Source: Patescibacteria group bacterium
GTDB lineage: Bacteria; Patescibacteriota; Minisyncoccia; Phycocordibacterales; UBA9973
DNA: 64,000 nt
Direction: 5' to 3'
NCBI GenBank assembly: GCA_040384805.1
Contig: JAZKIP010000008.1
Location: 36,749 to 100,748, forward strand
Made by a program: the position numbers and the translations under genes. Positions 22,475 to 55,998 of the stretch are shown piece by piece (positions within the stretch are counted from its first letter, which is position 1; each line of letters starts with the position of its first letter). The notes under the pieces are model-generated. The model had not been told where the DNA came from, ran no database searches, and saw only the letters and a program-made list of their open reading frames with translations.

Positions 22475-22478
<4 letters not shown>
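22035..22478 (-). CDS. NUDIX hydrolase
   Basis: Nudix box GHIEENETVKETALRELQEETGI. 147 aa. Start overlaps the ileS stop by 4 bp. Confidence 0.85.
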
Positions 22479-25972
<3,494 letters not shown>

Positions 25973-26242
25973 TTATGTAGAAGTGAATTTGATATTAAAA
26001 AAACTCGTCCACGTACAGCAATAAAAATTACTATACAAGGACGAGTTTCCCCGTGGTACCACCTTGGTTGCTTCTTAATTGATAGGGCTCTACTCTCCGC
26101 CCAAGGCGGATTTCTTCCCTATGCGTGCCTGTAATGAATGTTATTCATTACAGGCGATGAGGTGATGTCTGTCCGGATTACTCGGACGGGGCCTCGTCAT
26201 CGCATATGTAAACATCTTACTACAAAAGGTTATTCTTGCCAA
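25973..26242 (-). promoter_or_regulatory. T-box-like leader (Ile specifier) with promoter and intrinsic terminator upstream of ileS
   Basis: Minus strand, in order. Putative promoter TTGGCA-N17-TAAGAT. Short stem I GCGAUGA.GAGG...CCUCAUCGC with internal-loop AGACAUCA (AUC followed by A). An 11-bp hairpin. T-box-like sequence AACCAAGGUGGUACCACGGGG. Terminator CUCGUCC...GGACGAG followed by U7, ending 27 nt before the ileS AUG. Confidence 0.6.
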
Positions 26243-55912: not shown

Positions 55913-55943
55913 CTTACCAGCGATTTCAAAAAAACTCTATCAC

Positions 55944-55987
55944 AAAAAAAACGCTCTCCGGCCACTATGACCGGAGAGCGTTTTTTT
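55944..55987. terminator. bidirectional rho-independent terminator
   Basis: A8-acgctctccgg-ccactatga-ccggagagcgt-T7 between convergent genes. Confidence 0.7.
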
Positions 55988-55998
55988 GTGATGAGATA

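Follow-up and report, generated by a model that had tools for sequence, protein, structure and literature searches.

The DNA analysed here (the window) is a stretch of 64,000 nt from a Patescibacteria group bacterium (GCA_040384805.1, contig JAZKIP010000008.1, positions 36,749-100,748), in which the open reading frame at 22475-25972 encodes an isoleucyl-tRNA synthetase (IleRS; Pfam tRNA-synt_1, Anticodon_1, and DUF5915). Between 20785 and 28647 the gene order, on the minus strand, is argS, a NUDIX gene, ileS preceded by the leader that is our subject, a further NUDIX gene, and genes for a HAD hydrolase and an MBL-fold hydrolase. The closest relatives of this IleRS, 80 full-length loci at 57-75% identity, all come from metagenome-assembled genomes of Patescibacteria or the candidate phyla radiation (CPR) carrying Paceibacteria, Nomurabacteria or Minisyncoccia labels, which bears out the impression of a CPR-like genome that an earlier note had formed from the sequence; the NCBI taxonomy assigns the class of these relatives to phylum Minisyncoccota, kingdom Bacillati. 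Directly upstream, argS has neither a T-box nor any other leader detectable with Rfam, and T-box control within the 64-kb window is thus specific to ileS. No tRNA genes were found by a tRNA scan and an independent ARAGORN run, either in the window or across the 1.08 Mb of sequence around ileS in L001-L080, and masking does not explain their absence because these sequences contain only six short N-runs.

In the synthetase itself, residues 506-666 (window 23975-24457, minus strand) form an inserted histidine-phosphatase domain of the PGAM-like kind (Pfam His_Phos_1, E 2e-25), placed between the two halves of the IleRS catalytic domain, and its catalytic motifs look intact (RHG at 509-511, TRTRETA, and THGG at 653-656). 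The insert appears to be conserved in the clade, since 80 of 80 Patescibacteria relatives align across the full 1165 aa; we found no mention of a combination of IleRS with a histidine phosphatase in the searchable literature.

The elements of the leader, mapped by string search on the minus strand of 26400-25800, are listed here together with the gene that they precede.

22475-25972, minus strand: ileS, 1165 aa, start codon ATG at 25972, downstream of the T-box leader
26237-26242, minus strand: -35-like hexamer TTGGCA (sequence and promoter scan)
26214-26219, minus strand: -10-like hexamer TAAGAT (promoter scan), ending 10 nt before Stem I
26154-26203, minus strand: Stem I of the 'short' type, GCGAUGACGAGG ... 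CCUCAUCGC, 50 nt, 3' internal loop AGACAUCA
26171-26187, minus strand: distal hairpin of Stem I, GUCCG-AGUAAUC-CGGAC
26166-26164, minus strand: specifier AUC, followed by the 3' purine A at 26163
26127-26155, minus strand: perfect 13-bp hairpin ('H12'), an optional element between Stems I and II
26082-26122, minus strand: Stem II, AUAGGG...CCCUAU, with S-turn GGG-AAGAAA ... AGUAGA-CCC and upper helix UCCGCC/GGCGGA
26066-26081, minus strand: purine-rich linker CAAUUAAGAAGCAACC
26037-26065, minus strand: T-box/antiterminator AAGGUGGUACCACGGGGAAACUCGUCCUU, with A1 AAGG/CCUU, bulge UGGUACC at 26061-26055, and A2 ACGGG-GAAA-CUCGU
26049-26001 (hairpin) and 26003-25997 (U7), minus strand: intrinsic terminator, its 5' arm overlapping the 3' strand of the antiterminator

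Most of these elements, and their order on the minus strand, had been recognized in the earlier note, and several of its details hold exactly: the promoter TTGGCA-N17-TAAGAT lies at 26242-26214 (9/12 in the promoter scan), the Ile codon AUC followed by a purine occupies the 3' internal loop of Stem I, and the second stem AUAGGG...CCCUAU is found at 26122-26082. Other details needed adjustment. The perfect hairpin is real but has 13 bp rather than 11; the match to the T-box consensus stands, but comparison of AGGUGGUACCACG with GGGUGGUACCGCG gives agreement at 11 rather than 12 of 13 positions; and the terminator with its U7 is present, but the gap from the end of U7 to the ileS AUG is 24 nt (spacer AAUAUCAAAUUCACUUCUACAUAA) rather than 27. 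A short Stem I does exist, but the two strands proposed for it, GCGAUGA.GAGG (12 nt) and CCUCAUCGC (9 nt), are unequal, so that its pairing requires a 3-nt bulge or a choice of register. What that element list, otherwise sound, left unremarked is the reduced type of Stem I and the absence of the K-turn, the IIA/B pseudoknot, and Stem III.

These absences are apparent on inspection of the window's leader. Stem I has no distal platform for the tRNA elbow (IDTM), and its base reads ...CCUC-A-UC-GC (AUCGCC) as against ...N-GA-GC in 34 relatives, the 3' GA of the K-turn being replaced by a UC that could form Watson-Crick pairs with G6/A7. The linker at 26066-26081 keeps its purines (AAGAAG...AA) and can form no Stem III hairpin (RNAfold 0.0 kcal/mol), the 21 nt that separate Stem II from A1 contain no IIA/B pseudoknot or F-box, and the foot pair of A2 is A-U, with the canonical G•U wobble missing. 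The 246-nt leader as a whole folds with z = -6.3 relative to shuffled sequences. The 13-bp hairpin was considered as a dispersed repeat, an idea rejected on finding that its sequence occurs once in the window.

At gathering thresholds Rfam gives zero matches across the whole 64-kb window. With permissive filters, the search of the region with RF00230 proposed in the earlier note does return a minus-strand match at 26209-26034 that spans the whole model and scores 35.9 bits (E-value 1.9e-6 for a 501-nt region and 2.4e-4 for the whole window), though this is far under the gathering score of 93, and standard annotation consequently misses this T-box. The alignment sets 29 nt of the leader against the 76 of the model's Stem I, a truncated architecture, and the Stem III columns fall on bases that do not pair in the window. 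Four other relatives score 38.5-51.1 bits; in the alignments to RF00230 the 76 nt are represented by 29 nt (or 6 nt); and in a separate search of ten further family loci none reached the gathering score. Annotation based on Rfam thus overlooks the ileS T-boxes of CPR bacteria, all tested members lying at 36-51 bits against a threshold of 93. The RF00230 match is the sole meaningful one in the window; sub-threshold matches to Rfam miRNA families are palindromic terminators and were dismissed, as at 55935-55996, where 'mir-3660' matches on both strands mark a bidirectional intrinsic terminator (A-run, hairpin CGCTCTCCGGCC...ACCGGAGAGCG, T-run).

A covariance model built from the leaders of six uniform relatives, the window not included, was used to search the 80 loci and the window (1.1 Mb). 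In 44 of the 80 related Patescibacteria loci and in the window it detects a single leader each, always just upstream of ileS, and nothing else in the 1.1 Mb; the window's leader scores 109.8 bits against this model made only from its relatives. An exact core, GGTGGTACC[AG]CG, occurs in 43 loci no more than 450 nt upstream of ileS. One of the leaders (L071) is truncated, and counts of anatomy refer to the 44 complete leaders, the window's included. Seeding required some care: a MAFFT alignment mixing short and ultrashort leaders misplaced Stem I, and the model was therefore reseeded from the six uniform leaders; since it sets the 'Stem I' of the window and of L002 on the inserted hairpin, Stem I was parsed directly in the leaders.

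Across this family the specifier is AUC in all 44 complete leaders, followed by A in 41 and by G in 3, and the two loop bases that precede the codon vary freely. The T-box bulge is UGGUACC in 45 of 45 leaders, and the S-turn of Stem II (GGG-AAGAAA ... AGUAGA-CCC) is conserved. The A2 foot is A-U in 39 leaders, the window's among them, G-C in 6, and G•U in none. Stem I comes in two sizes: an 'ultrashort' form of about 27 nt, which has a K-turn and 4 bp of helix capped by the 6-nt loop NNAUCR (35 leaders), and a 'short' form with a small distal hairpin (9 leaders, including that of the window). None of the 44 complete leaders has a long Stem I, nor is there room for one, because the promoter lies so close upstream (10 nt in the window); a promoter match of at least 8/12 is found in 39 of the 44 leaders as compared with 16% of control windows, and in 34 leaders 8-10 nt separate the end of the -10 element from Stem I. 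In one relative (L025:5593-5775) Stem II and the antiterminator are separated by an insert of roughly 130 nt with many repeats of CCCCTCC/GGAGGGG motifs, and this insert splits the model match in two.

The remaining 36 of the 80 relatives have no detectable T-box, at least two of these loci having too little upstream sequence to judge, and it follows that ileS can dispense with the element. Leader-bearing and leaderless loci are interleaved on the IleRS tree, a distribution suggestive of an ancestral element that would have been lost repeatedly; transfer could also have contributed.

Evidence that the leader is a switch comes from the strand CUCGUCCUU, which forms the 3' half of A2/A1 and, alternatively, the 5' arm of the terminator. 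With this overlap and the RF00230 match, neither of the two outcomes that the earlier note named as refuting its interpretation is observed. The first base of A2, its partner on the shared strand, and the corresponding base of the terminator 3' arm form A/U/A combinations in 39 leaders and G/C/G combinations in 5, and mixed states do not occur; from this exceptionless three-way co-variation we conclude that both alternative pairings are maintained. The terminator, taken from the model-based alignment, has 97.2% of its cells paired, with double changes in 14 of 20 pairs, whereas none of 500 shuffles reaches the observed pairing and slid controls give about 40%; because its outer helix is not part of the model, that helix provides a test independent of it. 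The corresponding figures in Stem I, Stem II, A1 and A2 are 98.1% and 15 of 21 pairs, in an alignment that was fitted to the model, and compensatory changes are present in both helices of Stem II. Since the sequences are related, a small number of events may, through inheritance, account for some of these compensatory changes. A terminator arm with its T-run is found in 44 of the 45 leaders. In the window, the terminator state (-32.8 kcal/mol) is far more stable than the antiterminator alone (-6.6 kcal/mol), which makes termination, i.e., OFF, the default; the antiterminator together with the residual hairpin amounts to -16.9 kcal/mol.

We thus consider it very probable that the leader is a T-box riboswitch controlling ileS by transcription attenuation in response to uncharged tRNA-Ile, as the earlier note proposed; the RF00230 match, the IleRS gene downstream, the AUC in 44 of 44 leaders, and the shared strand all support this reading. 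T-box homology, gene context, the invariant specifier, and the mutually exclusive, co-varying helices support it directly, while binding of the tRNA, sensing of its charging, and actual switching are expected by analogy with the established T-box mechanism. Transcription would start a few nt 5' of Stem I, and by default the leader would fold into the long terminator hairpin with its U7, halting RNA polymerase 24 nt before the ileS AUG. When tRNA-Ile(GAU) is uncharged, its anticodon would pair with the AUC in Stem I's specifier loop, a contact probably buttressed by the S-turn of Stem II, as in the ileS T-boxes of actinobacteria. The free NCCA 3' end of the tRNA would pair with the UGGU of the bulge and stabilise A1/A2; these helices would then consume the 5' arm of the terminator, and ileS would be transcribed. 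Bacterial tRNA-Ile has an A73 discriminator, a potential partner of the U at position 4 of the bulge.

In an alternative reading the leader acts on translation by sequestering the Shine-Dalgarno (SD) sequence, like the actinobacterial ileS T-boxes with reduced Stem I, in which such hairpins are found 'instead of terminators' (Seliverstov et al., PMC1262725). The decoding module, an ultrashort or short Stem I with an S-turn-bearing Stem II, is of a type so far linked to translational control (PMC7583486; PMC1262725). Yet the competing helix in the window is a 22-bp, GC-anchored hairpin directly followed by U7, the form of an intrinsic terminator; the 24-nt spacer has no purine-rich SD, and the 3' arm of the hairpin, 32-38 nt from the AUG, is too distant for the hairpin to hold one. 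In relatives the terminator, with T-runs following the arm in 44 of 45 leaders, can be as far as about 300 nt away from ileS, a distance at which it cannot occlude the ribosome site. We accordingly regard translational control as highly improbable.

One could instead envision a decayed relic of a T-box, in which the hairpin with its U7 would be only a terminator, whether constitutive or leaky, or else a stabilising structure, tRNA no longer regulating ileS in this genome. The K-turn GA, IIA/B pseudoknot and Stem III are all missing from the window's copy, its RF00230 score is low, and the 36 of 80 relatives without a detectable T-box (at least two of them with too little upstream sequence) indicate that ileS can do without one. 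However, the window retains all core positions intact (AUC-A, S-turn, purine linker, bulge, A1/A2, and the overlap with the terminator), at least 15 other species that lack IIA/B and Stem III keep full pairing along with compensatory changes, and a constitutive terminator of -32.8 kcal/mol ahead of an essential gene would be deleterious without antitermination; for these reasons a relic seems to us distinctly unlikely. A chance resemblance, assembled from an ordinary promoter, hairpins and a terminator, could be suspected from an RF00230 score under the gathering threshold, but to this we give practically no weight: the E-values (1.9e-6 and 2.4e-4) and the 109.8 bits obtained with a model from other species speak against it, and it is refuted by the fact that 44 species conserve the element upstream of the orthologous gene, the Ile codon being invariant.

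Taking the leader as a transcriptional T-box, we can compare it with the systems already described. Earlier surveys report T-boxes in Firmicutes, Actinobacteria, Chloroflexi, Deinococcus-Thermus, and a few Proteobacteria (PMC2494555), and we found no report in the searchable literature of a T-box in Patescibacteria or the candidate phyla radiation. The closest architectural counterparts are the ileS T-boxes with short or ultrashort Stem I ('class II' of TBDB) of Mycobacterium tuberculosis, M. smegmatis and Nocardia farcinica (PDB 6UFG, 6UFM; PMC7583486), for which the TBDB class II model has been searched only in Actinobacteria (PMC7778990). The CPR leaders resemble these in the gene regulated, in the AUC followed by A, in the T-box bulge, in a Stem I composed of a K-turn and a 4-bp helix with the codon in or near the terminal loop and no elbow platform, and in the purine string of the Stem II S-turn; many CPR relatives also have IIA/B with the F-box GCCCGUUAUAGC. 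By numbering alone, the published actinobacterial scheme (codon at nt 16-18, A19, S-turn A39; PMC7583486) appears to fit the ultrashort members almost base for base. The CPR family differs from its actinobacterial counterparts in its host and in ending with an intrinsic terminator and U-run rather than an SD sequestrator; further, the window and at least 15 relatives have neither IIA/B nor Stem III, and nine leaders have no K-turn GA.

With the class I T-boxes of Firmicutes (RF00230; for example B. subtilis tyrS and glyQS and S. aureus ileS) the family shares an antiterminator and a terminator that exclude each other, a UGGN bulge to receive the NCCA of tRNA, a specifier codon with a purine after it, transcriptional control, and a sigma-70-type promoter near Stem I; Stem II of the window, like theirs, carries an S-turn, and its helices are backed by compensatory changes. 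Unlike class I, the CPR family has no long Stem I and hence no AG bulge/distal loop (IDTM), its A2 foot is A-U or G-C instead of G•U, it scores 36-51 bits as compared with the required 93, and in the window there is no Stem III hairpin. Likened by gene and lineage rather than by architecture, the ileS T-boxes of Chloroflexi (Dehalococcoides) and Deinococcus (PMC2494555) are a further parallel, lying outside Firmicutes and Actinobacteria and within the same large lineage (Bacillati). The window's leader therefore meets the core definition of a T-box (a bulged antiterminator, a competing terminator, and a cognate specifier) and at the same time conforms to neither of the two architectures, canonical class I or class II, and falls below the operational threshold of Rfam.

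The modules that it lacks are ones to which the literature assigns considerable importance. The tRNA-elbow platform of a long Stem I is described as generally required in transcriptional T-boxes, the GA pairs of the K-turn are among the modules called essential in model T-boxes, deletion of the IIA/B pseudoknot causes an approximately 1200-fold loss in tRNA binding, Stem III is termed 'indispensable for function', and the G•U wobble at the A2 foot is given as the main sensor of the aminoacyl group (all from PMC7583486). In the family at hand, a IIA/B pseudoknot with the canonical F-box GGGNNNNCCCGUUAUAGC is retained in 19 of the 44 leaders and a Stem III hairpin in about 15, the window being in neither group; at least 16 leaders, the window's and those of at least 15 other species, lack both. 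The 3' GA of the K-turn is UC, UU or UG in nine leaders, including the window's, substitutions that turn the sheared G•A pairs into Watson-Crick pairs, and on the IleRS tree these nine losses are spread over some 7-8 distinct branches.

A hairpin between Stems I and II, found at the same site with differing sequence, is present in 18 of the 44 leaders, among them the window's, and accompanies nine of the nine K-turn losses (9/18 leaders with the hairpin against 0/26 without; Fisher p = 7e-5). A simple rule by which it would substitute for the IIA/B pseudoknot was rejected because all four combinations of hairpin and pseudoknot occur (13, 13, 11, and 6 of the 43 leaders scored, L025 not among them). 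We also considered a hidden pseudoknot between the apical loop of Stem II and the linker (UUGG/CCAA in the window, UUAAUU/AUUAA in L022), for which the complementarity proved inconsistent across members. The extra hairpin between Stems I and II could create a three-way junction that sets the angle between Stem I and Stem II, and we put it forward as a candidate replacement for what is missing. Its recurrent pairing with loss of the K-turn is a specific lead for T-box structural biology.

We conclude that this is a real, compact and lineage-wide ileS T-box of CPR bacteria, and that T-box regulation extends to the candidate phyla radiation. The occurrence of an ileS T-box in a further lineage of Bacillati agrees with the view that T-boxes are ancient there, and ileS may be the only gene under T-box control in these reduced genomes. 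The family breaks the textbook pairing in which a short Stem I is translational and a long Stem I transcriptional; a few short-Stem-I leaders with terminators may, however, already have been described in Actinobacteria. A more far-reaching possibility, which we advance tentatively and with some reservation, is that the window and its family represent a naturally minimal transcriptional T-box that senses tRNA-Ile without the elbow contact, the K-turn, the IIA/B pseudoknot, or Stem III. If this were true, some contexts would allow a T-box to do without modules that work on Firmicute and actinobacterial models has labelled 'essential' or 'indispensable'; or else the missing modules would have been replaced by something so far unrecognised. 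In either case, the family amounts to a natural deletion series, in which K-turn, pseudoknot, Stem III and distal hairpin are variously present or absent and interleaved on the tree, and it offers structural biology minimal constructs ready for use, their sensing domain measuring about 115 nt, for finding the contacts that are truly required.

Two further observations concern the variable parts of these leaders. The distal hairpin of the short Stem I, with its flanks (CCCCGUCCG-AGUAAUC-CGGRCAG), is nearly identical in the window, L002, L019, L025, L029 and L059, which belong to distant branches of the IleRS tree and have sister taxa with ultrashort stems; the pattern suggests either an ancestral, constrained hairpin that would have been lost repeatedly or an exchange of leaders among lineages. 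Some relatives, moreover, carry a second conserved element between the terminator and the start of ileS (L001:5909-5990, L021:5872-5952, L022:5899-5979, L024:705-785, and L033:3745-3848, with a partial copy in L029). No Rfam family matches it, and the window, with a gap of just 24 nt, does not have it. The element is a long AT-rich hairpin with outer arms ACAAAUUAU/AUAAUUUGU, A7/U7 runs, a variable GC-rich tip, and three compensatory changes; it may act as a second attenuator or as a processing site, or it may be a small inserted palindrome.
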